Shown: positions 10,637 through 49,840, numbered from the stretch's first letter. The stretch: 64,000 nt of DNA from Spizellomyces punctatus DAOM BR117 (GCA_000182565.2 KQ257457.1); one strand, 5' to 3'. Numbers and translations are program-made. The notes: generated by a model from the sequence alone, not told the origin.

Positions 10637-13600
10637 ATGGGCGCTACGGGGAAGCGGGGCTTTGCGTCGTCCAGCGACATCACGATAGATACTTCGAAGC
10701 GTAGAAAAACGTCTGGTGGTGACGGTGTTGGTGAAGACGAGGCGGAAAAGTACGTTGGAAGGCAAATGCTGACGCTTATGCATTTTTCACCTAACCTTAA
10801 ATTCGTCTCAAAACGCTAAAGCAGTACTCCCCTTACCGAGTTGGTTCCCCTTTTTGATTACAGCGAGATCCATCAAGCTCTTCAAATAGTCGATACACCA
10901 GACCAACACACAGAAGAAGACCCTACGCCTTCCCAAGAGGTCATTGAACCAACTCAGCGGAATGATGTGGAATACACCAACTACCGAAGTACCATTGTCG
11001 GTATTCGGTATTACAAAGTATGGAATCTTGTCTGTCCCCGCGTCAAACAAAAAATCTAATCCTTATATAAAGGGGATGGTTGGGAAGGGGGAAAGCGTCA
11101 TTTTAGAACGGGAGCCGTTGAATCCATATGATAGGAATGCTATCAAAGTGCTCAATATGCGAAATGATCAGGTGGGACATATACCCAGGGAGCAGGCTGC
11201 GGTCTTGGCGCCTTTTATGGATGCCGGTACGATAAGAGTCGAGGGAACAGTTCCCTACGGAGGTGCGCATCATGTCTTCTTTCTCATTGGGCATCGATCT
11301 CATAAGGGTAGTTTAGGCGACAATGTGTATAGGATATCACTCGATTTGGAGGTGTACGGACCGCGCGAATCTTACGATCAGGTTATGGCGGCGTTGAAAC
11401 CATTCATTGGAACATCTTCCAAGGGCCCGTCCTCTTCGTCTGCAAAAGGTCCCCCTCCACAACCGCTGCCCCAACCGCTGCAAGACTTGATGCAGGCCGG
11501 GACCAAAGCGGACGTCAATGAGTCCCGTAAAGTCTTGGTGAGTACTAATTCTCCTGGTTGTCTAAGCTCAGAAGATTGACAAACTTACAGGATTCGCTCT
11601 GCCAACAAGGCAAAGAGGTCTCCGATCTTCCCCTTCATCCGTCGCCCCCAGCTCTTTGTACGCGGCTGCATCCGCACCAGTTGCAGGCTCTGGCGTGGAT
11701 GGTACACTCCGAGCATCCTTCGCTTCCGACAGATGAAAGCGATCAGAGGCAGTTCTGGATGAAGAGAAGTGACGAGAAGGTTTGTAAGAAACCGCTCTGG
11801 TGACGGTGTTTTCGAGCATTAACAAAAGGGAACATTGCAGGGGGCATACTACCTTAACGTGGCCACCAATTCACCAGTGCGCAATCCGCCCGAACTCTGC
11901 CGCGGCGGAATGCTGGCAGATGACGTACGTTGTGTTCAAACCGGTAGATGATTGCCATGAATATTAATCTTGTCTTCCATTAGATGGGTCTAGGTAAAAC
12001 CCTTACCTCTATTGCATTGATTTTGAGTGATCCAACGGGCGCGCCTCTCATTGCTCCACCTGCGACAACCTCGACGAGGGCGAAATACGGCCATCAAACG
12101 CTCATTGTTGCGCCACTATCGGTTCTTTATAACTGGAGAGAGCAGATTGACGTGAGTTGATACTGTTGCACAACTGTACATGGACTGGAGCTCGTCTAAG
12201 AGCTGATCTTTCGTGCAGCGTCACGTACCCGATGGCAAACTCCGTTACTTGGTTTATTATGGCGCGGACCGACCGCAAACCGCAGCGACTTTAAAGAAAT
12301 ATGACGTGGTCATTACAACGTATCAAACCCTTGCCATGGAGTTCAACGAAGACTATTCAGAGACTACCAAGGGAAAGACTAAACCTAAGAAAGGGCCGTC
12401 CGAAAACGGCCTGTTGTATAGCATAAAATGGCGCCGAGTTATTTTGGATGAGGTTTGTTGTCTATTGCCAGTTTTCTTATCCAATGTATGTGCTCATATT
12501 ACACTAGGGCCACATCATCCGGAACCGCCGAGCCAAAATATCCAATGCATGCTACGCCCTCACCTCTGAACGACGCTGGGTTCTGACGGGAACACCCATC
12601 ATAAACACCCTCGACGACATGTTTTCTCTCATCAAATTCTTACACTTTACGCCATTCAACGATCATCAATGGTGGAACCGATGCTTTACCCGTTCGTTAC
12701 GATTGGGCGATCGGGATGGGCTGACTCGATTGAGAGTTTTGATGCAGAATTTGTGTTTGAGGAGGACAAAGAGAATGAAGATAAATGGAAGGCCTATTGT
12801 GGAGCTCCCAGAGTGTAAGGTGTTTATGTTCCGTTGTGAGTTTGGGGAGGAAGAGCGAGAGGTGTATAAAGTTGTTGAGACGGAGAGTCAGAGGCGCGTT
12901 GAAGAATATGTCAAGGAGGGAACGATGGTAAGTATGTTTGAGTTGTTTGGTGTATGAAGCGTGAAGCTGCAAAGAACCTAATGATGGACACCAGTCGGCC
13001 AATTACGCAAATGTCCTAGTTTTTCTCACACGCCTCCGTCAAATTTGCGTCAACAAGGACCTGTGTCCGAAGCACTTTATAGAGGAGTTGATGTCCAACT
13101 CGTTCGCCACTCCCACCCAACTCGATCTAACCGACGAAAACATCAAATACCTCATCAACAAACTCGTTGAAGCGGATCAAAACAATGAGGATTGCTGTGT
13201 TTGCTTGGACACACTAAAGGAACCCGTCGTGACGCCTTGCGCACATGTGTTTTGTAAGGCATGTATTTCAGAGGTGAAGAGCACGAATCCGGTTTGTCCC
13301 ATGTGTCGAGGCGATTTGGAGAATCGAGTGCTTTTACCATTACCACCCCCACCACCACCAGAATCATCTCATCCCGACCCAACACCGACTCCCATTGAAC
13401 CATCAACCCATCCAACTCGCAATTTACCCTTCAAATCCACTAAAATCCACCACCTCCTTCGTTTCCTAAAAGCTACACCACCCAACGAGAAATCACTCGT
13501 GTTTTCCCAATTTACTGGCATGCTTGACTGTGTTGAACCGTTTTTGACGCAAGCGGGGATCCGATATGTTAGGTTTGATGGAACCATGTCCATGAAGCGA

Positions 13601-14107
13601 CGCGAAGATGTTTTGAGGAGGTTTAGCGGCGTTGCCACCAAGCGTCCAACAGCGACACCAAGAAAAGGAAAAAAACGGATGGCGGATGAAGAGATTGTAG
13701 AGGACGCTCATGTCATGTTGATTTCCCTCAAATGTGGGGCATTGGGCTTGGTATGCTATAGCATCGTATTCCAGTTTCTGCTTACCAAAACTGATGAATA
13801 CATTCCAACGCAGAACCTCACACCCGCCAACCACGTATACCTCCTTGACCAACATTGGAACAGTAGTATCCAAACTCAAGCTATCGACCGTGTGTATCGC
13901 CTCGGACAAACCAAGCCAGTTTCTGTCGTCCACATTGTTGTGTCTGATACGATTGAGGAAAGGATTTTGAGTATTCAGGCTAGGAAAGAACGGTTGATTT
14001 CGGATGCGTTTGCGGGTATTAGACAGGCGGGTAAAGGTGTTGTGGATGAGCGGAGGGAGAGGAGGGCGAGGGTTGAGGAGGATCTTAGGGAGATTTTTGG
14101 GATATAG
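10637..14107 (+). CDS. HIRAN + SNF2 helicase + RING protein (Rad5/HLTF-like)
   Basis: HIRAN (IVGIRYY..LEREPLNPYDRNAIKV..VGHIPR), GGMLADDMGLGKT, WRRVILDE|GH, LTGTPIIN, RING CCVC..CAHVFCKAC..CPMCR, C-terminal helicase KSLVFSQF..QAIDRVYRLGQ. Confidence 0.92.
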
Positions 14108-14235
14108 TTATGCATAGCATTTGAGCGAATGAAAAATGAACATTAGAAAGAGACTGGTGCTCAGTAATTACAGCGAGGCCTTCAAAAGCGAGCACAACAA
14201 TTTGGACATTTTTAACATGGAGAGGAACCACCTTG

Positions 14236-14284
14236 TCGAGACTGGAATTTGAGACCAGCTCCTTAACTGCTCCGGTAAAGGTGC
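14236..14284 (-). pseudogene. Degenerate 5'-half copy of the adjacent tRNA-Leu
   Basis: tcgagactggaatttgagaccagctccttaactgctccggtaaaggtgc aligns with 14411-14460 with several substitutions. It lacks the T arm and the 3' acceptor strand. Confidence 0.75.
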
Positions 14285-14378
14285 CATGCAATATACATGA
14301 AGAAGATCATGTTCTACTGATCAAAAGCCAACCCTGTCCAGCAAAAGGATGGAAAAAGAGACGCTTTAACTACACAAA

Positions 14379-14460
14379 TGCACCCTGTGAGATTCGAACT
14401 CACGCCTCTTTCGAGACTGGAACTTGAGACCAGCTCCTTAGACCGCTCGGACAAAGGTGC
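14379..14460 (-). tRNA. tRNA-Leu(CAA), intronless
   Basis: Reverse complement GCACCTTTGTCCGAGCGGTCTAAGGAGCTGGTCTCAAGTTCCAGTCTCGAAAGAGGCGTGAGTTCGAATCTCACAGGGTGCA folds as a cloverleaf with CAA anticodon, long variable arm and GTTCGAATC T-loop. A T5 Pol III terminator lies at ~14353-14357. One T-T mismatch at the base of the anticodon stem. Confidence 0.92.
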
Positions 14461-14544
14461 TATACAAATTCAGGAGGCAAGTTTCATTATGTCGCGAACA
14501 AGCTGAGATAGATGAGTGTGTTGGGCAACCAACTTCACGCACAG

Positions 14545-15345
14545 AACTGACCTCCTGCGATCTACCGGTTTTCAGTCGAGTACCAGTAGTGTGGAAGTTT
14601 CGTGCGTTCTTGTCGGAACGCAATAGTGCGCACAGTAAATGCCATCGGAACCATCTGTTTGCACGAATCCAAGAGAGCTGAGAACCCCCGAACGTTCATC
14701 AAAGTGAAATTCCCTGCTCGCAGAGTGGGAGAAGGCCTAAAATATATCCGCGTACTATCGATCGTAGAGGTATAGTACGCTGCTAATACCTGCCACACAG
14801 TAGATGCCATGGGAACCATCTTTTATACACGAATTCAAGAAAGTTGAGCCGCCCCCAGAACTTGGATCACAGTGAAATTCCTTGCTCACATAGTTGGAGA
14901 AACCTGGAATTCCAAATTGTATGTGTGTATCATTGGAATGTGCGTCAGAGTCCAGCACAGCTGGATAGCACGGGCGAAACTGGACTGCTCAAGGGAGCTT
15001 TCCCGACACAGGCTAGTTTCCTGGTTTTCGCACTTCATGGGGGTGCCAGGAGGGGATGGCTCTGGACAATGGTCTGGAGCTGCCTATGTAGAGCGTAGTA
15101 CTTGTGAAAAGCTAGCTGTGTACTGCAAACGCATACTCTTAGTTCCAACACGTTACCCGAGTTGATACAAAAGATACAGCTGAAAATATAAGACTGGAGA
15201 ACAGAGAAAACAAGTGAAGAACGAGCAACAAGGAATCATTAAGCCTCTTCCCACCATGTCGGGGCCGACAGCTTTGACCCGTTTCTTTCAGACTTGGGAT
15301 TGCAAATATTTGCCAGAAACATATAGAGAAAATATTTTCCAATGT
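14545..15345 (+). pseudogene. Two tandem decayed copies of exon 1 of the 16875 nuclease gene; the second is followed by the RNA-bearing intron remnant
   Basis: TSCDLPVFSRVPVVWKFRAFLSE resembles DCRDLSCFGQPPAKWKFHDFLAA. 14630-14740 and 14795-14910 are direct repeats matching the 3' part of exon 1. gtatgt donor at ~14919. Confidence 0.7.
14974..15094 (+). ncRNA. Structured RNA motif, copy 1 (diverged)
   Basis: Same helix layout as the other copies: GCTC-aagg-GAGC, ACACAGGC/GCCTATGT, TTCCTGG/CCAGGAG, GGCTCTGGAC-aatg-GTCTGGAGCT. Confidence 0.7.
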
Positions 15346-15421
15346 ATAAAAACGACATCTAGTTCATTCGATTTTGTGTAGCTGACATTCAAATGTAGTC
15401 TATTCAATTACACATACGCAC

Positions 15422-15950
15422 TTTCGCCCTCCTATCATTGAGCACAGCCAATTGCCCCGTATATTCCTGCGTTATGCCAGAACAAGCCGTTATCCAACCT
15501 ATCCAACCACCGGTGGACCGCGGACCAGGAAGGAGAAAGGAAGACGAAATAGTAAAATACAACTGGGGCCTGTATCGAATGAAAATCCAGCTGGTTCGGC
15601 GAGCAAATGTGGTGTGGTAGGTACCCGATGGCAGCACGGTGGCTAATGGTGATTTCTGAGGCAGGAAACTCGTTGGAAACGACGAGGCGCCCGCAGTATT
15701 TGAGCCCCAGGTTCTTTCGTTGATGACCGACCCATGTTTGTGTGGTGATATTCGTCGACTACCTCCATTCATTGCCCAAAGGGATGTTAGAGAAGCGATT
15801 CTCGGGCGGATGAACAAAGGAGGGCGGACCAGCCGGACTTTAGCGGAGAGAATACGTTACTACGAAAAACCGGATGGCGTAACGGCTTGTTCTGGCTTAA
15901 CGCAGGAATATACGGGGCAATTGGCTGTGCTCAATGATAGGAGGGCGAAA
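15422..15950. mobile_element. MITE-like non-autonomous element (~530 bp) with 71-bp terminal inverted repeats
   Basis: 15422-15492 is the reverse complement of 15880-15950 with one mismatch. No convincing internal ORF. No clear target-site duplication seen. Confidence 0.75.
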
Positions 15951-16874
15951 ATGCCAGAATGGGACGATGGGGAAGGAGGTGGTGGAAAGAGTTTATAAGC
16001 TTGGGGGGATAAAAAAGATAAAAGGTAACCCCAATTGTATTGCTGTGCTCACGTCACTTTAGTCAAAAACCTCTTGACATGTCTGCACACTATCTGCACA
16101 CGTCAACAGTAATAGCTGTCGGGTACTCCCCATTATAGTGAACGGGACTTATTGGACCAAGTTATGACATGAACTTGCGGAGGTTAAATCATTGATAACT
16201 AATAGTAATCATTATTATCTACTACTGAATACACCATTTATTTCGGACTAATATATTATATTAAAGTATTTATTAAGGATTTATATCAAATACTTGTTTA
16301 ATGTTAATCTATTCTTTAAAAAGTACTTGTTTATTATTAACAAATATTTACGAAATGCGCTCCACAGCTCCACCATTTGCTCCACAGCTCCTCATGCCCG
16401 CTTGCTCGTACATGATCCCCCCAAATCTCAATTGGACACGGCCGACACTTGGACCGATTTACTTTAGACTATTTTCACAAATATTGCTGGATATGTGACA
16501 GACTACATATACATAAATTAATATCCGATGCATAGAAAATACTCCGCCTGTTTTCTAGTTTATGATATGTTGTAAAGTAGAGGAAAACAGGGTCAATGAT
16601 GAACTTAGACATTGCAGGTCGTGTTCGATGTTAAATCATTTATCGATGCGTTTAATCATGTGGGATCACGACGGTACGGGGAGTACCCTACTTGTAGTAT
16701 CGACATTTTGCTCGTTCAAGTTTAGCAGGAAAATTGCAGTGCGTGCGATAACCAGGTTTGATGGGATGGCCAAATGGAATAGTTGAATGATTGCAACCGC
16801 AATAGACCACTTCAAACCTGCTGTGATGTTTTAAATAGGGTCGATACGACTGGTAGAGCGCGCGTGTTGAGACG

Positions 16875-18717
16875 ATGGATTGTCGCGATCTTTCTTGTTT
16901 TGGTCAACCACCAGCAAAGTGGAAATTTCACGATTTTTTAGCGGCAGTGAAAGACGAGTATGGCCCGGAGACATATTTCAGTAATGACATAGACGTATGG
17001 AGGAATCGTTACCTAGACACAATCAACGATTTGGGCACAAGTTATATGAACGAGTTCGCGCGAGCGGACACACCCGAATGCAAAACTAGGTGGAAATGTT
17101 TATTACAAGAGTCAAGGAGAGCTGGGAGTGTAAAGGTATGTGCGTAATATCAATCACAGAGGTGCATGATGCTGTAAGAGTCCGGCTACGCTGAATAGCA
17201 CTGGTGAAAACGGACTGCTCAGTGGAGCTTCCCCGGCAAAGGCTAGTCTCCTGGTTTATTCGCAGTAGCGGGCTCTAGGAGGGGATGGCGTTGGGCAATG
17301 GTCTGGAGCTGCCTTTGTAGAGTGTAGTACCCTGTGTGTGAAATGCAAAGGGAACGCTGATATACCTTTCTTGTAGAGAGATGATCTTGATTTGGCAGCG
17401 CGCATTTTTAAAACGGAAAAGGATGCGTATGAGCAATCCAAGCTAGTACAACCGGTCATACGATCCATGTATGAGTCTGTGAAGACTCAAAGTGAAGATT
17501 ACACAAAGACGTTGACGAGGCTCCGGAAGCGGAAAGCCACTGAGTGTCTAGATGCGGAACCCTCACCTTCCCTTGACACTGTTCCACCTCCAATAGTAGA
17601 CACTCTTGATTTGGATACCGCTGCCAGGCTAGAGGATATTAAGGAACTTGAAGCGACATTGGTAACGCTCGGTAAAGAATCCAAAGAACATGCAATCGTA
17701 CAACGCATCAAACACCTCCACACCATGCCTGGTAAACATAAACCTGCATATTTCAGTACATTGTACTGGGGAGTGTTAGATACGAGCGATGCGGAGAGCG
17801 TTTCACTCCTTTCGGATACGTCCCGCCAACGTATCGAAGACATGTGCAATAATGTCATTAAATCTACTGAAGGCACCCTCTCCGGTTCAGCAACAAGTCT
17901 TCTCGAAGCCCTGCCGGTGCAGGAAATGTCGATCCGCTCGCTATCGCAAATCTGTGAGGAATTTGGTCTGAGTGGTTTATTTGCGTCGCTTGGGGTGCAA
18001 GATGGAAAGGTGGATGATAACGACGCAAAGTACATTAGCAGAGCCATACAAGAGGCAGCGCATTTCTTGGAAAAATACGCACCCGTATCCGGCCTCAACG
18101 AACGTAGCCTTGACGCACATACGATGATCAAGCTCGCGGATGTTCCAGGCGCCTGGTTGCTCTTGTATGGTGAGGTGATGAGCAGGGCTGACCAATACGA
18201 AAAACATGGTAGAGGGCATTGTAGGGACAAAAAGGGGAAATTCGTGGATTACCTCTACCGAATAAGTGGTGTGGAGATCGGCTGTGGGGAGAACTCTGGG
18301 CCGTTGGAGGAGCACCAGGAGCACGCGTTGGAGAACATCGTCGATCTTGCAAAAACCGCACGAGCTCAGCTAATGAAACTAAACGAAATGGCTAACAACG
18401 AAGACATGATCGTGCCGTTTTTTCACGTTGTGAACAGAACAGTACACTTTTATCTCTCCTTCGAGTGGTCTCCGGGTTTATTTGCAATGCATCAGTGGAT
18501 GGAAGCGGGCCTTCCGATAGGGGACATAGACGTCACCGCTGTTGTGGATCTTGCTTATGCGTTCCTTACCTTTCGCAACATAATGATTCGTACCGCCAAG
18601 ATGTTAAATGGCCGTCCACGGAGCCTTCTTGGGCAAGTAAACTTGAACCGTACCCGTTCCCTCAACTTGATTCGCGGAGTCGTCACTCCAAAAAAGCGTG
18701 CCAGCAACAATGGTTGA
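16875..18717 (+). CDS. Two-exon 533-aa protein with probable PD-(D/E)xK restriction-endonuclease-fold C-terminal domain (fungal Crinkler/CR-REase-like). Exons 16875-17135 and 17377-18717.
   Basis: Phase-0 intron AAG|GTATGT...GCTGAT...TTGTAG|AGA joins two ORFs in frame. Motifs LNERSL, YGEVMSRA, GKFVDYLY, EIGCGENSG, DLAK, then beta-rich FFHVVNRTVHFY..GLFAMHQWMEAGLP. NLS-like RLRKRK. Confidence 0.75.
17204..17323 (+). ncRNA. Structured RNA motif, copy 2, inside the intron (17136-17376) of the intact nuclease gene
   Basis: GTGAAAACGGACT-GCTC-agtg-GAGC..GCAAAGGC..CTCCTGG..CTAGGAG..GGCGTTGGGC-aatg-GTCTGGAGCT-GCCTTTGT-AGAG. Preceded by a second conserved hairpin at ~17170-17200. Confidence 0.78.
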
Positions 18718-18736
18718 TAATGTCAAATAGTTTGTC

Positions 18737-18945
18737 TTGCAAAGATTTTGTGGGTACGGGGATTCATGTAAATTTATGCCCGATCGAGGAGATTACAAGA
18801 GTGGGTGGCAGTTGGACAAGGAGTGGGAGGAGAAGCAGAAGCAGGAGAATGATCCAAATCGGTTGTTGATTACGAGTGATGATGAGAAAGACGAGGATGA
18901 AGACAAGGATGAAGACTTGCCGCTTGCATGCGTGATATGTTGTTA
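18737..18945 (+). pseudogene. Fragment of a Cwc24/RNF113A-like gene (end of CCCH finger to start of RING)
   Basis: [29 protein letters not shown]...[11 protein letters not shown] is the Cwc24 signature. It is truncated at both ends and the CCCH His is replaced by Pro. Confidence 0.8.
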
Positions 18946-19159
18946 GGTATAATTGTTCTTTGCGCAATGCGCATCATGGGAAATGTCGAGCACGTAAAGG
19001 TCGGAGGAACCATGTTCATGGGCGGTGGATGGAAGTAGTTATACGATCTTCTGCAGTGTCCAATACTAGCAGCATAGGATGACTGGATTGGTAGGGGCAT
19101 ACCATAGGAAATATAAAAGGGCTTACCAGGAGGGTGTCGCGATTCTGTGATAGTCATAT

Positions 19160-19660
19160 TCATGCTGACAGGTTTGGCTCGGCAATGCCTTTATTTTTCT
19201 AGCATCGATGATCTCCGACAAGAAATCTTTTCCTTGACATCTACCCCACCTCATGCGCAGATTTTGTTGACTCCAGCTGGAGTTCAGCTAAAGCCTGAGA
19301 TGGTCTCTGAGATTTTCATGATATGTTGTTACTAGTTTGTGTACTGCACTGCAGATTGTGAATGACATTAAGAACTTGATAGATGCAGCTCCATGCATTC
19401 AAGACTTTGAAACACCACTACCGTTCCGAATATTAGCAATGACTTTGTATTCCAGACATTAATGCCCATTGTCTTGTCACAGCATCGGTCAGCACGAGCT
19501 AAAATACTCTTGTCCACTTCCCGTGCTGCCCAGATGGGTCACAAAAATGCCATGAGAACTTGATTACACTACGCAACCTGTCAATCAAATATAAATGGAT
19601 TAATGACGCTTCAAGCGTCTTTTGCCATCATTCAGAGGTATAGACAACAGCAAGGTGTGT
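19160..19660 (+). pseudogene. Possible disrupted gene fragment, ubiquitin-like segment reminiscent of the Atg11 N-terminus
   Basis: SIDDLRQEIFSLTSTPPHAQILLTPAGVQLKPE pattern, followed by stop/frameshift-disrupted coding-like sequence. Confidence 0.3.
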
Positions 19661-19991
19661 AAAAGTCACCGAAACAGCGAATATGCCATAATCAACTTCT
19701 CGTTGTCATAGATCAACACCCACAAAGAGTCGGTTTCATGACTCTCATAAAGGGATCATAAGGACACTCCTTGGTAAAGAAGCTGGACCATGAATATGTC
19801 ATCAACGACGGGGTGATGTGACAGGTTGGTGCGGCCATCGGGGCTTCTTGGATGGGATGTCGTTGTCGATACAGCGGATGCCCCACCTCCAACCGTCACG
19901 TTCATTCCAAGACCTATCTCAATATTTACATTTGGGACTTTTGCATCGATGTATTCCTCCACAAGGACAGTTTTCCGCACAAGAAGGGTGC

Positions 19992-20036
19992 GGAGGGCAT
20001 GGCTCTGGACAGTGGTCTGCAGCTGCCTTTGTAGAG
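19992..20036 (+). ncRNA. Structured RNA motif, copy 3 (3' half only)
   Basis: ggagggcatGGCTCTGGAC-agtg-GTCTGCAGCT-GCCTTTGT-AGAG, followed by the same downstream flank as copies 1 and 6. Confidence 0.65.
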
Positions 20037-20773
20037 GGTAGTGCCCTCTGCTGTGAAGCGCAAGCTGTATACTGCAAACACATACTTTCATTTCTAACAC
20101 GTTACCAGAAATGATACGAAGATACAGCTGAAAATATACAAGACTGGAGAAGAGAGAAAATAAGCGACAGGAGAACGAGAAACGCCGAATATCCAACCAC
20201 CATGTCGGCGCCGACAGCTTTTGACCAGTTTGTTCCAGACTTGAATAGCAATATTGGCCGGGTACACATATGGAACACATTATCCGATGCATGGAGAATA
20301 CTACAGACCTCTTAGTGTATTCTTAAAGCATGTAAAACTAGTCATAATATGAGCAGAGGAAAACCAGGTCGGTGATCCGCCCGGGTGATGTCCGAAAGTT
20401 CAGGACGCATTTGGTGTCATGTGGGATCATGCTCGTACCTTTTTTCGACGCGCGTGTGTGGGCGCCGGGACGCGATGAGACAACAAGATGCCCGCTAGAT
20501 GGAAGTTACAAGACGTCCTGGCTGAAGCCAAGAAGGACTTTGGTATTTCGGTTTTCTTTGGTTGTGAATCTAAGATGATACTAATACATCTACCATTATC
20601 AATATGCAAGCTTCGTAAACTGTAAGATCCAGTGCCTCGATTGCCTTGAACGACTTGGAGACTTTAAAATCCAATCCAAGCGGAGATTCCCGGAAACGTA
20701 AAGGTATGTGTATAATATCAATCTTATAGAGGTGGAGTGTGCTGTAAGAGTCCAGCATCGCTGGATAGCCCGA

Positions 20774-21186
20774 GTGAAAACGGACTGCTCATAGGAGCTT
20801 TCCCGGCAAAGGCTAGTCTCCTGGTATTCGCTTGCGGGTGCCAGGAGGGGATGGCGTTGGGCAATGGTCCGGCGCCGCCTTTGTAGAGCTCGTGCTCTCG
20901 TCTGCATCGCACTGCACCGGGTGGGTATTAGTGAAAACGGACTGCTCATAGGAGCTTTCCCGGCAAAGGCTAGTCTCCTGGTATTCGCTTGCGGGTGCCA
21001 GGAGGGGATGGCGTTGGGCAATGGTCCGGCGCCGCCTTTGTAGAGCTATACCTGACCCTCATGGGTACTCGTGAAAACGGACTGCTCATAGGAGCTTTCC
21101 CGGCAAAGGCTAGTCTCCTGGTATTCGCTTGCGGGTGCCAGGAGGGGATGGCGTTGGGCAATGGTCCGGCGCCGCCTTTGTAGAGC
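20774..21186 (+). repeat. Tandem array of three identical 116-nt structured-RNA units (20774-20889, 20931-21046, 21071-21186) with 41- and 24-nt unique linkers
   Basis: The units read identical by eye. They follow an exon-1-like remnant and an aag|gtatgt donor at ~20704. Confidence 0.92.
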
Positions 21187-21457
21187 GAGTACCCTGTGTG
21201 AAGTGCAAGCTGTATACTGCAAATGCATACTCTCATATCCAACACGTTCCAGGAATGATACGAAGATACAGCTGAAAATATACAAGATTGGAGAGCAGAG
21301 AACAACCGAAAAAGGAACAAGAAACAGGGAATAGTCTCAAATCAAAGTGGAATTTCCTACGTACACAGTTGGAGAAGGCTTGAATTCTTAAGGTACGTGC
21401 GCATGAAAGTTGGGGTGCAGTGTGGTCTGAGCATCACACTGCATGGGAGGGTATCAA

Positions 21458-21715
21458 GCGAAAACGGACTGCTCAGTGGAGCTTTCCCGGCAAAGGCTAG
21501 ACTCCTGGTTCTCGCACTAGCGGGCTCCAGGAGGGGATGGTTCTGGACAGTGGTCTGGCTCTGCCTTCGTAGAGCTTTGTACTTGAGCTGGGTACTTATG
21601 AAAACGGACTGCTCAGTGGAGCTTTTCCGGCAAAGGCTAGACTCCTGGTTTTCGCACTAGCGGGCTCCAGGAGGGGATGGTTCTGGACAGTGGTCTGGCT
21701 CTGCCTTTGTAGAGT
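21458..21715 (+). repeat. Tandem pair of structured-RNA units (21458-21575, 21598-21715)
   Basis: Near-identical variant units with agtg loops, each closed by its own flanking stem. Confidence 0.9.
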
Positions 21716-21844
21716 GTAGTACCCTGTGTTGTAACTCGCAAAGGGGATGCCATTAAACAAGTTGAGCACATTACTAATATACCTCTCTGCCTGTTAGCGG
21801 ACGATCTTTGCACAAAGCATCCTAAGGTTATGTATATGCATTCT

Positions 21845-22070
21845 CAATTTCCACAAGTCGCTCGAAAAGGTACAGCTGCTGAAAATATCAAAAATCCCAC
21901 ATACCACTACTCTGACATTATATTCGTGTAAAGGAAACGGAGAAGACAAAAAAGGAGGACAGTAACAGAAAAACAAATCGACGCAACGCACACGCACCAA
22001 AGTGGAAATCAAAGAGAGGACAAGTGAAGACAGAAGGAGAAACGTGGAGTAACCAATCCACCTCCCACCG
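21845..22070 (+). repeat. Diverged duplicate of the Rho1 3' flank (~22662-22915)
   Basis: Shared blocks gctgaaaatat, gacattatattcgtgtaaaggaaacgga and cgacgcaacgcacac. Confidence 0.85.
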
Positions 22071-23165
22071 TGTACTCTGGTTGAGAAGGGCGACCTTTGG
22101 TTGGCGCAAACCATCTTTAATACGCAGAAGGACGTCTATGAACAATCGAAGCTCGTGCAGCCCATTTTCAAGTTTATTTTTGAGTCTGTGAAGATGCAGA
22201 GTGAAGAATACTTGAAGACTTTAACAAAGAATCGGAAGCGCAAAGCGTCAGAATGTCTGGACGATCAACCCTCACCTCCCCGAAAACATTGTCGATCAGA
22301 GTAATGAGTCCTACCTCCAAGATGTTGAATAGCCGTACACGGAACCTTTCTTGGGAAAGTAAATTTGCACCGTTCCCTCAACTTTATACTCCAAAGAAAG
22401 CGTCCCAGCAAGAGTGGTTTGACAATATCAAATAGTTTGTTCTTGATCCAAAATGTCGCCACTTGTTATTAGTTTGTGTATTGCAATGTAGATGTGTTTT
22501 CAAATACAAAATTTATCTAGTACCGGCATTTTCTGGTAAATTCAACTAGCTACCTGTTAATGGTTCATTGATTCGTAACTATCAACCTCACGTCGAAGTC
22601 TTAAAGATTTCAATTACCGGGAAAGAATCCAGTCTGATCCTGCCCAAATCATGGTCGAATGGCAAATGTCCACACGTTAAAAATCGATACAGCAGCTGAA
22701 AATATAAAGGCCCCACAACATCATCATGCCACTACTTTGACATTATATTCGTGTAAAGGAAACGGAAAGGAAAGAAAAAAAGGAGGGCAATAACAAAAGA
22801 AACAAAACCGACGCAACGCACACACTGGAAAAACAGAGAGAGAGAAACAAGCGAAAAAAAAAAAAAAAAGAAACGAGAAACGGGGAATAACCAAATCCAC
22901 CCCCACCATCCAAAAGAAACCATCTACGAAATTCCAAACGCCCCACCAACACAAAAGTCAAGAAAGGAACGCGCAACGGACGCTGCTCGAGCGATTGGGG
23001 GCAGGCGCCGAAAAGAAGAACCATAACAACAACAACAACAACACAAGATTTGAATACTCTACAGGGAGGGTTTCGGAAATCCATAATACAATATAGGGGA
23101 GCCTGTGGGCTGTTACATTTTCTTTTCTCCATTCGCTTTTTTTTCCATTCTGTTCATCTTGTTGT

Positions 23166-23981
23166 TTAGAGGAGCTGGCAACCGGGCTTCTTACCGCCCT
23201 TCTTTATCCGGGACACAGTCAGAGCGGCCCTCGTGGCGTGCTCAAACACCTCTCTGACACCCTCGTTTGTTCTTGCACTGCATTCAAGGTATTTCCAGGC
23301 GGCAATCTTTTGAGCAACTGCTTGGCCCTACCAAGGAAGAACATGTTGAATCAGTTTCGCGTCCGTGAAAGAAAAGGTATTTGCCGATTCTTTGTAGAGA
23401 CTCACCTCCTCAGGAGTAACGGGAGACTGGTGAGTCTTGCGCAGCTCCTCAATGGTCTTGGGATCGTTCCGCAAATCCTTTTTACATCCAACCAAAATAA
23501 TTGGCAGTCCCGCGCAAAAGTGTAACACCTCAGAAATCCACTGCAAACGATAACAATCACAAACATTTTAGAATCACATTTATTCGCAGGAAAATGTTTT
23601 GAAAATTCGTCGAAAACAAACCTTTTCCTGAACATTGTCTAGCGAATCGGGGGAGTCAATGGCGAAACAGATGAGGATGACGTGCGAGTCGGGGTAAGAA
23701 AGCGGACGCAAACGGTCATAGTCTTCTTGCCCAGCGGTATCCCAAAGAGCAAGCTCAACTCGCTTGCCATCCACCTCCACGTCCGCCACATAGTTTTCGA
23801 AAACGGTAGGGACGTACACCTGCCAAACCATAGCTACGGGTTAACGAACCTTCCTTTGATGTGCTGAGATAACGTGTCAACATACCTCGGGGAAGGTCCC
23901 CTTGGAAAAGACAATCAACAAACATGTCTTTCCGCAGGCACCGTCACCGACAATAACCAGCTTGCGACGAAGTTCAGACAT
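23166..23981 (-). CDS. RHO1: Rho1 small GTPase (4 exons)
   Basis: [85 protein letters not shown] (CAAX). Confidence 0.97.
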
Positions 23982-25959
23982 TTGTAAAAGGTAGATGCAA
24001 GGTGAGGGTAAAAGGTACTGCACCAAAAAAAGAGAAAAGAGTATGAACGAGAACAAGGTTAGCGGTCCGCTATTTGTCAAAATTTTCCTGCAGCCAGAGG
24101 TTTTCCTCATGTCGAATCAGGTTGCCCTCTGCAGAGTCAGCATGCATGAAAGTAATAGCATGGCGACCATCCACTACCTCGTTTCCTGCCAACTATCGAC
24201 AAAATGTCTAATGCTTCCAAGTGAAATTCGACAGATTGTCTTTTGCAGTCCATGTGCGCGTCTAACCATCTCCGACATGCCACGGCAATCCCACGAGCTC
24301 TTACCTAGTAGAATGTGGATAACGTCGCCGTATGCAGCAATTGCTTCAGAACCCAGACGGTAACGAGCAAACTGAATGGGCAAAAAGGGGAACAAAATGG
24401 CAAAGTGATGAAAAGTGCACGAGTAAGGTTGGCCGTTTTTGCGTGGACGTGTAAAAATACAAGGGTTGCTTACGACGGACGAGTGAGGGGGCTCTCAAAG
24501 ACTGCCAGAAACCAGTCTTTAGCGATGACAAGTAAATGGAGGCGAGCAAATAGCAACGCCAATAAATGGAAAGCCGACGACGGACGACGACGGACGACAA
24601 ACAAAAAACCAACCAAAATAAAAATGGGAGAACAGCAAGGGGGGGATTCAACAACAAAATCTCTCTTCAAGAAGAAGCCGAACGGGTGTTTTCCCTCTTG
24701 GTGGGATTATTTCCTTTTTAGGCAATTACATGCCACATTCTAATCACATTAATTGGTTATGGCTTGTGATTGCTGTCTTCTAGTTATTCTTTTTGTTTAT
24801 TTTCTTTTTGTTAGTGCATACAAGTGTGCTTTTGCTTCTTTCCTTTTTGTTATTTGCAACGTAGGATAGGAGCAAGAAGGGAAATGTATTTGTTGAAGGA
24901 TAAAGACTGCATGGCGAATATTTCAATTTCACATGACTCATGAGCGTCATTCATTTTGTTGGTTTGGTCAGATGCGAGTGGGCATGAAACGAGTCTTGAT
25001 GATAAAAAGTATGTAGTGGAATGATAGGTCAGTTTGTGAGTGACATTTGTTACCGAACCATGTCCCCCATATCCCACTTGTCCCAACAAAACCTGTCTTT
25101 GGAATATGGTTGATGCTTATGGTATTCCTTACTCTCCTAGAGTGTTGCAAAGTGTCGAGTACTCTATTGGATTGTGAATCGCGTGTCAGCACACACACAG
25201 CCGGTCATTTGCATGGTGGACATTGGGGTGGTTTTGCCCTTGTCCAAATTGCCATTCCTTTTTGTTTCCGATGAGATTTCTCGCCCATCTTTTTGAGGCT
25301 GGAGGCTTTTTGTCATTGTTTTCTCCATTGTTTGCTTTCACGGTTTGCTGGCATGGCCAAGTTGTCTGTGTGTGTTGCGGTTAAAGCACTGTGCATATCT
25401 TGAAAAAAAGCATATCTCACCAAACCCTTTGCCCTCCGTTGCTCAGCCTCTTGGATACAACCAATCAACTAACGATATTTATCCATAAAAGGAAATTTAG
25501 TACTAGCACAGCCACCTCACACTCGTAACTTTTTGCACACTTTCGACTTCGCCTGCTCTCCGTGCTTTTTGACTTTTGCTTGTGAGCAGAATACCCAGAG
25601 CACAGGAGGGGTTGGAGGGGACTCAAAATGAATGGCATTTGATGTATAGAGCAGCATTGATTTCACTCTCTCTTGATCTTGATTTTGTTTTTTGCAAAGG
25701 CTTTGTTTATCGCTTTCGGTTGGCATACCTGCGGTCTGGCTTTTGCTGGGTTGCTTTATACGTTTTTGATTTTGCTGCAAAGGTATGTCTTCTATGCGGC
25801 AAGCATATGCTCGAGTCGTTCAGTATTTGGCGACAGCTGTCTCGTTGACACATGAGCTTATTTCGCACCTGGTTGTTAGTTTACAAATAATTAAAAGCGG
25901 ATTTCTTCAAACGACCGTATCGCCATCATTGAGCCCTCTGCTGTAACTACCGCTGCACC

Positions 25960-47936: not shown

Positions 47937-49840
47937 TTATGTTGATGCCTCGCCCGATTGGATGGGCTCCGTAACTGCTGTCTTCACTCCAGAGGTTTTG
48001 GGATTTGTGTCCTTTTTCTTGGGAATATGAAGACACGTCAATGGAAAGATCCCCCGTTTGTGAGTCCGGACGTTCCAGCCATATGCCCAACCTTGGTGAT
48101 GAACCAGCACATCCAGGTCAGTTCACTGCTCAACATGAGGCACGAACCCACTGTCAAAACCCGCTACTTACCATCCCTAAAAACCTGCTCCACAAGCATC
48201 CCGTCCCCCCCACCCACCTCAATTTCGTCTTTTAAATCAGGCGTGTGGGTGTAAATCGCGTAAAACAATGCTGGACGTTCGTTGACTGCGTCTACCTCAG
48301 GGGCCTGCGACGAGTACATTCCCACCACGCGGCCCACGCTGGATGCCTCTGATACACCACTTTGAGGGCGGTAGTTATGCGGGTAATATTGCATACTGGT
48401 ATGTGTGTAGCGACTGTGAGGTGAGGAGCGATCAGTCTGTACGGCCGCAGGTGGTGGTCCAATCCCGCTCATACGAGGTACGTTTGTGCGGTGGACCGTC
48501 CTGACATTGGGGCTAGTTTGAGTTGCGGACGTAGTCGATGCAATTCGCGGACGTCGAATTGTGTCGCTCCTGGTTAATGTTGAAGAACCTGCCAAAAGTG
48601 ATGGAGCAAGTTCCGAAAAGATGCTCGCATGACGGCACAAGTCTGGACGTAACAGAGATGGCGCCGTGCTCTCCGGTTCATCTGCAGTATGCGAAGTCCC
48701 ATGTGCCCCTTTGCCAACCTCTACCGCGGTTGGCACCTTTTGGTGTTCCGGTGGCTGGGAACTTGTCACCGCGGCTTGCTTTCCCTGTGAATCGGCTGCG
48801 TTTTCAACACTTTCTTCGTCTACCGCGGTACCATCTTCTGGATTTAAAATCAGTGTCTCATCCGATGAATCTGACCTAATAGATGTTCTTGGGGCATTGT
48901 GTACAGAGACCTCCGGTGGATCAGGAGTCGTGTGATGAACCCACTTTTCAGTGTAACTATGTCGGGCAGGCCGGCGCGCGGACTGTGGAGTGTCTGATGG
49001 GGCCGTCTGATTTGGGCTAATCTGGACTGAATGCGAACGTTCCTCGCTCGGCATAGGTTGCTCTGCTGGTTGAACGGATTGCGGAGATGGTTCAGTCGCC
49101 GCTTCAGGACTTCCGTAGGTCACTGCACTCTCTTTCTGAGCTTCTTTTTGTGAATCATACCTAGATTCCGCATCATCGTCCATGACGGTTTCGATAGCAC
49201 GGTTGCTATCCCTGCCATTGAGAAACACGGATCCTACCGTTTGTGCTTTATCCCACTCAACCCCACTTCCCAAATCAACACTAACAAATTGTGCTTGCAA
49301 CTTTTTGCTCCGACGTTTTCGTCTATACGTCACAAAACAAGAGAAGCAAAGGCATCCCAGAACAGTCAGAAAAACTACTGCCGCCGCCGCTGCAGAAATA
49401 ATGAGAACAACTGTGTGTCCAACGACTGCGCCATTACGATCGGCAGCAGCGGATTCAGAAGGCACAGCAGATGGTTTCGGTATGGATAGGATGGGAGTGA
49501 GGGTTGGGGATGTTGCGGGCGGGAGAACCTTGATCGTAGCACTGGGCTGCGTGGTGATCAACGTTGGGAAGGGAATTGAAGGGAAAGACGTCGAAGTTAT
49601 ACGGGAAGACCGATTAATCGACGTTGTAGCCAAAGACAAGAACGAGGCAGTTGAGAAGGACGTATTACGAGACACAGTAGGTATGCCTGATGGAGCCAGC
49701 AACGCACTCGCTGTCGTCGACAAAGCAGTTACATTCTGTGTATTTTGTGTCGCCGCAGATAAGCTTCTTACACGGCTGCTCACTGTCGGGCTGCCTGCCA
49801 AGCGTGTGGTCGTTGAATTCGGGCTCTGGCGACGCTCCAT
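47937..49840 (-). CDS. Single-pass membrane protein: Ser/Thr-rich ectodomain, TM, disordered tail, C-terminal SH3
   Basis: TM VVLIISAAAAAVVFLTVLGCLCF + RRKRR. SH3 YAIYTHTPDLKDEIEV..D|GWAYGWNVRTHKRGIFPLTCL across an intron at ~48095-48170. Start may lie further upstream. Confidence 0.82.

Follow-up and report, generated by a model that had tools for sequence, protein, structure and literature searches.

Background

To our knowledge, almost no lineage-specific non-coding RNAs have been described in early-diverging fungi. Introns are known to host small RNAs in repeated, non-coding host units, as in small nucleolar RNA (snoRNA) host genes and tandem snoRNA clusters, and fungal introns can harbour thiamine pyrophosphate (TPP) riboswitches. 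Here we analyse a repeated element within a 64,000-nucleotide stretch of the chytrid Spizellomyces punctatus DAOM BR117 (GCA_000182565.2, KQ257457.1; hereafter the window, with positions counted from its first letter), whose repeat unit had been proposed, in an original prediction made from the sequence, to fold into a five-helix RNA with compensatory changes. According to Collemare et al. (2013, PMC3609843), introner-like elements are longer than regular introns, with stable predicted structures and compensatory mutations, and duplicated introns that are nearly identical and low in copy number occur commonly in fungi. The Fanzor omega-RNA SpuFz1, from the same organism as our locus, is described by Saito et al. 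[quoted passage not shown]

Every copy of the element examined here lies on the sense strand within the homologous intron of paralogous, mostly decayed gene copies, a location that changes the list of likely functions. We consider it probable that the element is an intron structure selected at the RNA level, because its closing stem covaries, its pairs are biased towards G-U wobbles, its junctions are invariant and its core is conserved above the flanks.

Results

Copies and architecture of the repeat

The repeat core has a length of 113–118 nt, is bounded by GAAA(A/C) and GTAGAG, and is present in seven full copies (c0 to c6) and one 3' half-copy, exclusively on the + strand and spanning positions 14976–21714 of the window (Table 1). 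The interval 17204..21715, to which the repeat had originally been assigned, does contain it, but c0 falls outside. The 5' anchor GAAAACGGACTGCTCA occurs 7 times at ≤ 3 mismatches, against 0.54 occurrences expected by chance, and the half-copy, whose upstream sequence is unrelated to the repeat, scores 33.6 bits over 19907–20054 with a covariance model built from the copies. Since neither self-BLAST nor this model recovered a further copy on either strand of the 64 kb, the element is a local cluster of ~6.8 kb, with all copies confined to 14866–21745 and to paralogous units (the listing of the covariance model omits c3 and c6, probably because the model flanks overlap neighbouring matches). 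The cores of c2, c3, and c4 are 100% identical over 116 nt while their closing arms and spacers are unalignable, so that only five distinct core sequences, all from this one cluster, were available for comparison.

The unit has the topology P1[P2, P3[P4, P5]], with P1 as the closing helix, P2 as a bulged hairpin, and P3 leading to the hairpins P4 and P5, an architecture of two nested three-way junctions with the linkers (T)GAAAAC and AGA(G). For c4, the helices, linkers, and loops quoted in the original prediction (21062–21194) are all present and correspond to the minimum free energy (MFE) RNA fold (–75.2 kcal/mol, z-score –6.75; none of 200 shuffles equal). The reverse complement folded as RNA reached –53.8 kcal/mol (z-score –4.19), i.e., the + strand is 21 kcal/mol better, and with DNA parameters the two strands gave –33.2 (+) and –27.2 (–) kcal/mol, the fold being significant with these parameters too (z-score –4.92). 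The hairpin loops of P2 (AAGG, AGTG, ATAG) and P5 (AATG, AGTG) follow the pattern ANNG in all copies, just as had been noticed.

Covariation, wobble bias, and conservation

P1 is the seat of real covariation. Its arms, inverted repeats of 9–11 bp of which most have an outer GGGTAC...GTACCC, cannot be aligned between copies, yet in c2–c6 every 5' arm has its best partner in the 3' arm of the same copy. The mean duplex energy was –10.5 kcal/mol for cognate vs. –7.7 kcal/mol for non-cognate arms, and the cognate arrangement was the best of 120 permutations for c2–c6 (for all seven copies, 62 of 5040 permutations were as good). In an ungapped alignment of the arms two-sided changes affected 7 of the 10 pairs; by eye, G-C is replaced by A-U from c4 to c6 and U-A by A-U from c3 to c5. 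Individual cognate energies were –11.8 (c2), –13.5 (c3), –18.3 (c4), –12.2 (c6), and –5.5 kcal/mol (c0), the 5' arm of the latter reaching –17.2 kcal/mol with the 3' arm of c2. The arms of c2 (AGCCCGAG / CTCGTGCT) are unrelated to those of the other copies, P1 of c3 is formed by GGGTATTAG / CTATACC with one bulge, and P1 of c6 by GGGTACTTAT / GTGTAGTACCC.

RNAalifold run on a MAFFT alignment of the copies, as suggested with the original prediction, recovered P2–P5 without two-sided changes (0 of 35 pairs) and was blind to P1, since its arms cannot be brought into a sequence alignment. Among the 39 pairs of P2–P5, 22 are invariant, 9 change on one side (mediated by G-U), 7 are only broken and a single one, in P5 (alignment columns 109–126), changes on both sides, being G-C in c2–c4, U-A in c0, and broken in c1, c5, and c6. 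Compensatory change is thus clear in P1 but weak in the core helices, where, with this one two-sided pair and the seven that only break, the original statement on pairing being kept in the variants holds only in part. The variant P5 attributed to copy 1 (GGCTCTGGAC/GTCTGGAGCT) belongs in fact to c0; the first copy inside the proposed interval, c1, has a chimeric P5 with a G-A mismatch.

Across the five distinct cores, 35 paired cells hold G-U and 3 hold A-C; counted by pairs, 12 hold G-U in some copy vs. 3 for A-C (binomial p = 0.035). Random transitions in a DNA palindrome would yield both equally, and the excess of G-U therefore argues for an RNA of the + strand, in agreement with the original prediction, as does the strand difference in folding energy. 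Variable positions were counted at 3 of 24 junction or internal-loop positions, 11 of 17 hairpin-loop positions, and 22 of 78 paired bases; the junctions and internal loops are thus less variable than the rest of the core (3/24 vs. 33/95, Fisher p = 0.046). The GAAA and AGAG junctions, which had been called nearly invariant, are invariant in all seven copies together with J4/5 (GGGAT) and the P2 internal loop. Identity between units amounts to 82–88% in the core, 51–77% in the 70 nt upstream (intron leader), 51–56% in the region 71–200 nt upstream (exon 1), and 54–78% in the 60 nt downstream, with a baseline of 47.7 ± 4.1% for unrelated 70-mers.

A further sequence of the c5/c6 region is available from X6, one of four sequencing runs compared (library type not recorded, ~96% like the window). 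A 161-nt contig of this run (21488–21637) carries 2 substitutions relative to the window across the two core parts taken together. In the 25-nt spacer (21575–21599) that separates c5 from c6 and bears the P1 arms, it shows 5 substitutions plus 11 inserted letters.

Stability of the fold in individual copies

The five-helix fold is the MFE structure in three of the seven copies, namely c2, c3, and c4 with their identical cores, and it is for these that the predicted fold of the repeat unit holds. In c1 it is close to the MFE (–37.7 vs. –42.6 kcal/mol, base-pair distance 8), while in c0, c5, and c6 an alternative fold supplants it fully or partly, in c5 and c6 by pairing the P2 strands with the P5 region. 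The P4 and P5 helices of c5 contain 2 × 2 pyrimidine mismatches. We also observed that in c5 and c6 (21509–21574 and 21649–21714) both P4 and P5 read GGTTCT...GGCTC(C/T) with the same 2 × 2 pyrimidine mismatch (U-U, U-C), a resemblance that suggests partial copying of one of the two hairpins over its neighbour.

The stretch 20704–21250 (547 nt), which covers c2–c4, folds with an MFE z-score of –9.03 and its modules fold separately: c3 and c4 form separate five-helix units, each closed by its own P1, and c2 retains its core helices with P1 replaced. In the same fold, the region of the putative 5' splice site is base-paired to a segment close to the 3' end.

Intron setting and host gene

Each of the introns holds one to three copies. 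Splicing of the intron with c1 is supported by a 304-nt X6 contig that joins 17133 to 17375 (cut +2) and skips 241 nt with GT..AG ends, by a reading frame that is continuous over the joint while all three intron frames contain stops, and by the spliced translation, which is 100% identical to the public protein P0001 (533 aa, uncharacterized, Spizellomyces punctatus DAOM BR117). The unspliced form was recovered as well (X4 record 19, 16640–17261, 0 differences). The three other introns are probably spliced too, to judge by eye from their GTATGT or GTACGT donors and branch-point/AG acceptors.

The 5' part of the c1 intron is homologous to that of the putative c2–c4 intron (17130–17322 vs. 20698–20888, 84.6% identity), and the putative c5/c6 intron is flanked by the remains of a decayed paralog, exon-1-like on one side and exon-2-like on the other. 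Other remnants of the host gene comprise 20479–20622, which encodes a stretch 43% identical to host residues 13–35; 22053–22301, with 65% protein identity to host residues 86–151, beginning 2 residues before the intron position; and 22302–22445, matched by 18581–18739. The leader hairpin of the c2–c4 intron (Table 1) also precedes c0, and a different 9-bp hairpin precedes c5. The 3' end of the core (CCTTTGTAG/AG, 17311–17322) is similar to the demonstrated acceptor of the c1 intron (CCTTTCTTGTAG/AGAG, 17364–17380), and in the predicted fold this acceptor-like sequence is hidden in P3.

The host protein has no Pfam family and a single weak PDB match (E = 0.015); a word-based search retrieved the protein itself alone, and the ESM Atlas contained only unnamed clusters. 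An exhaustive protein search yielded 58 representatives at E ≤ 0.001 including the query, and its 57 relatives are all unnamed and all match within residues ~187–531, hence the protein offers no functional clue. Right after the host stop codon, a 71-aa open frame (18731–18946, +) gave a weak CCCH zinc-finger match below the Pfam cut-off (E = 0.0071); with its terminal acidic tract followed by a Cys-rich motif, the frame looks, by eye, like a fragment of a CWC24/RNF113-type splicing factor. X6 contigs break off at 18803, 18838, and 18940.

Judged by their sequences, all copies descend from one intron, by tandem duplication within it and by segmental gene duplication, because their flanks are decayed paralogs of the same gene. 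The pair c3 + c4 is homologous to the pair c5 + c6 (20904–21199 vs. 21431–21729, 81%), but c3 is identical to c4 and only 83.5% identical to its counterpart c5, so that the units of one intron evidently evolve in concert and undergo gene conversion. The copies c0 and c1 may be deletion chimeras between the first and the last unit of a multi-copy intron, since they are single in their introns and have a poor P1, and since c0 has a 5' arm that pairs well with the 3' arm of c2.

Table 1 Coordinates of the repeat copies, the helices of c4, the host gene and the introns (fold z-scores are those of the per-copy comparison)
Feature	Coordinates	Strand	Fold z-score	Remarks
Copy c0	core 14976–15093 (118 nt)	+	–1.20	most divergent, 82–83% to other copies
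Copy c1	core 17206–17322 (117 nt)	+	+0.59	chimeric P5 with G-A mismatch; weak P1
Copy c2	core 20776–20888 (113 nt)	+	–4.75	core identical to c3 and c4
Copy c3	core 20933–21045 (113 nt)	+	–4.44	
Copy c4	core 21073–21185; with P1 21063–21194	+	–6.48	copy cited in the original prediction
Copy c5	core 21460–21574 (115 nt)	+	–2.89	
Copy c6	core 21600–21714 (115 nt)	+	–3.88	97.4% identical to c5
3' half-copy	19973–20036	+		P5, 3' strand of P3 and AGAG only
c4 P1	21063–21072 with 21185–21194	+		
c4 J1/2	21073–21078	+		
c4 P2	21079–21100	+		
c4 P3	21103–21110 with 21174–21181	+		
c4 P4	21115–21144	+		
c4 P5	21150–21173	+		
c4 J3/1	21182–21184	+		
Host gene	16875–18717; exon 1 16875–17135, exon 2 17377–18717	+		533-aa protein
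c1 intron	17136–17376 (241 nt)	+		phase 0, GT..AG; splicing supported three ways
Putative intron with c2, c3, c4	20704–21252	+		GTATGT...CAG; splice signals read by eye
Putative intron with c5, c6	21393–21797	+		GTACGT...TTAG; signals by eye; 3' end may be near 22077
Leader hairpin	20751–20765	+		TCCAGC-ATC-GCTGGA; precedes the first copy in its intron

Neighbouring features

A second, purine-rich repeat family with the motif ACAGCTGAAAATAT occurs at 15103–15347, 20052–20292, 21197–21333, 21871–22069, and 22688–22907; it lies just past the ends of the introns that hold c0, the half-copy, and c4, seems to have come in as an insertion that separates c6 from the exon-2-like remnant, and may be a promoter or 5' untranslated region-like module, or a small mobile element. 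Upstream of the cluster there is a tRNA-Leu(CAA) gene (14379–14460, – strand, 82 nt), probably with an intron, and an 86%-identical duplicate of its 5' part (14236–14291 vs. 14411–14467, ~175 nt apart) that resembles a tRNA fragment or a second gene just upstream of the repeats. A 75-nt inverted repeat (15418–15492 / 15880–15954, 97% identity) encloses ~390 nt and is foldback-like or like a miniature inverted-repeat transposable element (MITE). Contigs of X2 and X4 contain joints between opposite strands (16357/16729 and 16417/16638) in a stretch rich in inverted repeats. Downstream, a Rho/Ras-family small GTPase gene with several short introns is located at 23166–24113 (– strand; Pfam Ras E = 6.5e−20 and 2.5e−06 on two exons). 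Other open reading frames of the window encode SNF2-RING, sulfate permease, and histidine-kinase domains, and the largest unassigned one (558 aa, 48164–49840) had no match among solved structures.

Discussion

Proposed function

We propose that the unit forms an RNA domain of its own within the sense-strand intron, composed of a junction core (P2 and P3-P4-P5) and a unit-specific P1 drawn from both flanks, which would have resided in one intron of an orphan chytrid gene and then multiplied, most of the gene copies having decayed since. Each unit would fold alone during transcription and serve as a protein-binding module, which might either outlast splicing as a stable intron-derived RNA or ribonucleoprotein, or form a multivalent binding platform on the pre-mRNA, while the decaying host copies would be mainly carriers, as in snoRNA host genes. 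An intron that carries a product would agree with the identical cores and their separate closing stems, with the invariance of the junctions, and with the decay of the exons. An independently folding module of this kind, be it trans-acting, protein-binding, or a stable intron-derived RNA, is in our view possible with somewhat less than even odds, and such an RNA would presumably accumulate or bind a partner. To the full proposal, i.e., a new chytrid-specific class of intron-hosted, tandem, ~115-nt double three-way-junction RNAs with invariant purine-rich junctions, which would leave the host intron or act on it by binding a protein, binding a ligand, or catalysis, with the gene copies mainly as carriers, we would assign a probability of roughly 20%.

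A number of observations weigh against this proposal. Compensatory change in the core is weak, with one two-sided pair and seven that only break; when the full 49-pair structure (39 pairs of P2–P5 and 10 of P1) was tallied on the alignment used for RNAalifold, with c2–c4 counted thrice in the cells, 87.4% of the paired cells could pair vs. 85.4 ± 0.9% after shuffling, with the observed value attained in 14 of 500 trials (sliding the partner strand by 1–3 columns reduced pairing to 42–50%). The five-helix fold is not the MFE structure in four of the seven copies, another fold being favoured by 6–11 kcal/mol for the cores of c5 (–44.0 vs. –54.8 kcal/mol) and c6 (–42.6 vs. –48.9 kcal/mol). The sole copy in an intact annotated gene, c1, is no stabler than its shuffles, and both c0 and c1, with z-scores of –1.20 and +0.59, have a poor P1. 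Gene conversion alone could account for the conservation of the core without selection. Inspection by eye, Rfam, and ARAGORN revealed no box or motif of a known small-RNA class in the copies. Searches beyond the window, in collections with few or no fungal sequences, gave no homologs: a 32-nt degenerate core pattern had 0 matches in metagenomes, and a three-anchor pattern had 0 in prokaryote genomes and 0 in viral contigs. A two-anchor pattern had 4 metagenome matches, which we take as chance, because these unrelated, high-GC, bacterial-coding-like sequences share the two anchors alone.

Other explanations

A close rival, in our view only a little less likely, is that the unit is a structured intron repeat acting only in cis, or an essentially neutral one, of the introner-like kind. 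It would have no product and would have spread by tandem and segmental duplication, conversion would keep the copies alike, and selection would act just on the self-closure of P1, which keeps an intron of 240–550 nt compact, its ends close, and acceptor-like TTTGTAG sites buried. This explanation agrees with the sense-strand intronic location of all copies, with the pairing of the putative 5' splice-site region to a segment close to the 3' end in the whole-intron fold, with the concealment of the acceptor-like core end in P3, and with concerted evolution (c2 = c3 = c4; c5 97.4% identical to c6). It also agrees with the lack of unusual stability of the copy in the only intact gene, and with the distribution of P1, good in 5/5 copies of multi-copy introns and poor in 2/2 copies of single-copy introns. 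Stable structure and compensatory mutations are, in addition, features of published introner-like elements (PMC3609843). However, compaction alone needs no invariant junction bases (3/24 variable), the core has stayed at 82–88% identity while its flanks drifted to about 51–66%, which would require frequent conversion between arrays, and in the window the copies occur in paralogous units only, not in unrelated genes.

An element acting at the DNA level seems improbable, be it a small transposon of the foldback or MITE type, whose terminal inverted repeats would be the P1 arms, or a quasi-palindrome whose complementarity is maintained by template-switch repair. The inverted-repeat nature of the arms, the significance of the fold with DNA parameters, and the presence of other repeats nearby, such as the 75-nt inverted repeat, are in its favour. 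However, the arms differ per copy, those of c2 being unrelated to the rest, although constancy of the ends would be required for a transposase to act; by eye, the units are not flanked by target-site duplications, no copies exist elsewhere in the window on either strand, and neither the ratio of 35 G-U to 3 A-C cells nor the strand asymmetry of 21 kcal/mol is expected for a DNA palindrome.

A domain that governs the splicing of its host intron, either as a ribozyme that cleaves itself or by sensing a ligand as riboswitches do, would suit the compact form, the two three-way junctions, the invariant purine-rich junction strands, and the precedent of TPP riboswitches in fungal introns, but it is very improbable and we obtained nothing in support of the catalytic or ligand-binding core originally suggested, given that the ribozyme and riboswitch models of Rfam 15 gave no match even with the threshold relaxed to E = 10 over 17000–22000, that the hammerhead core motifs (consensus compared by eye) are missing from the junction strands, that several copies have mismatches or prefer other folds, and that the host is an orphan gene without a metabolic link.

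Significance

If functional, the element would represent an unclassified structured RNA family with an unusual arrangement, in which identical cores with their own closing stems stand in tandem inside one intron. If it is a mere structured intron repeat, it would instead provide a small, datable example of intron growth by internal duplication while the intron stays spliceable, and it would link to the open question of why introner-like elements bear selected secondary structure. The organism is reported to be transformable, and a small-RNA data set for it is described, in PMC10432273.

Comparison with known RNA and repeat classes

A scan with Rfam 15, covering ribozyme, riboswitch, small nuclear RNA, and snoRNA models, recovered one tRNA only in the whole window at the gathering score, and five chance-level matches (BtsR1, SMAD5-AS1_2 twice, TCL6_1, and COG3860) in 17000–22000 at E up to 10; the hammerhead, HDV-like, twister, twister-sister, pistol, hatchet, hairpin, and VS models had no match. 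Among the papers listed for introner-like elements and for Spizellomyces introns, ribozymes, and non-coding RNA, none describes the element.

Box C/D snoRNAs carry a C box (RUGAUGA) near the 5' end and a D box (CUGA) near the 3' end, beside a terminal stem, and box H/ACA snoRNAs have a hairpin-hinge (ANANNA)-hairpin-ACA tail layout. Measured by eye against these consensuses, the element fits neither: all copies have (T/C)GAAAAC at the 5' junction and GTAGAG at the 3' junction, there is no ACA near the 3' end, the three-way junctions are nested, and no Rfam snoRNA model matched. The locus is like snoRNA host genes in having a conserved RNA-like intronic unit within decaying flanking exons, a terminal stem of free sequence, and repeated exon-intron units, but differs from snoRNAs in its five helices and two three-way junctions.

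With the TPP riboswitch it shares a structured, P1-closed domain in a fungal intron that could hide a splice-site-like sequence, but it differs by the topology P1[P2, P3[P4, P5]], the tandem copies, the host without known function, and the absence of an Rfam match. In its junctions the GA of J1/2 faces the GA of J3/1 beside P1, and the four facing bases, invariant in 7/7 copies, might form tandem sheared G-A pairs as in a kink-turn or k-junction, although the 3-nt bulge that separates the G-A pairs from the stem of a standard kink-turn has no counterpart between P1 and these bases. Rnt1-type AGNN loops, loops like those of iron-responsive elements, A and B boxes of RNA polymerase III, and a pairing of J1/2 with the 5' strand of P4 were also considered by eye and fit some copies only.

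A tRNA or a tRNA-derived short interspersed element was rejected, as ARAGORN on 13500–23000 returned just the tRNA-Leu gene at 14379–14460, the same gene as found with the Rfam tRNA model; the P2 stem-loop bears a partial likeness to a D arm. An identity as MITE or foldback transposon was discarded owing to arms that vary per copy, no direct repeats in the flanks (by eye), and no dispersed copies in the window. Like the Fanzor omega-RNA (PMC10432273), the element would be a small structured RNA of this chytrid that incorporates variable flanking sequence, but it has 113–118 nt and five helices, is intronic, and both its flanks are variable and mutually complementary; it was set apart from the omega-RNA on this architecture, by the published description alone.

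The likeness to introner-like elements, as presented in PMC3609843, comprises a spliceosomal intron with canonical signals (shown here for the c1 intron), long introns with a stable predicted structure (z-score –9.03 for the 547-nt stretch, although +0.59 for the c1 unit), compensatory change in a stem (here P1), and the decay of some copies. The locus differs from them in that what is repeated here is not a whole intron but a module inside it that lacks splice sites, that up to three units stand in tandem per intron, and that, within the window, the copies occupy the homologous intron of one paralogous cluster and not unrelated genes.

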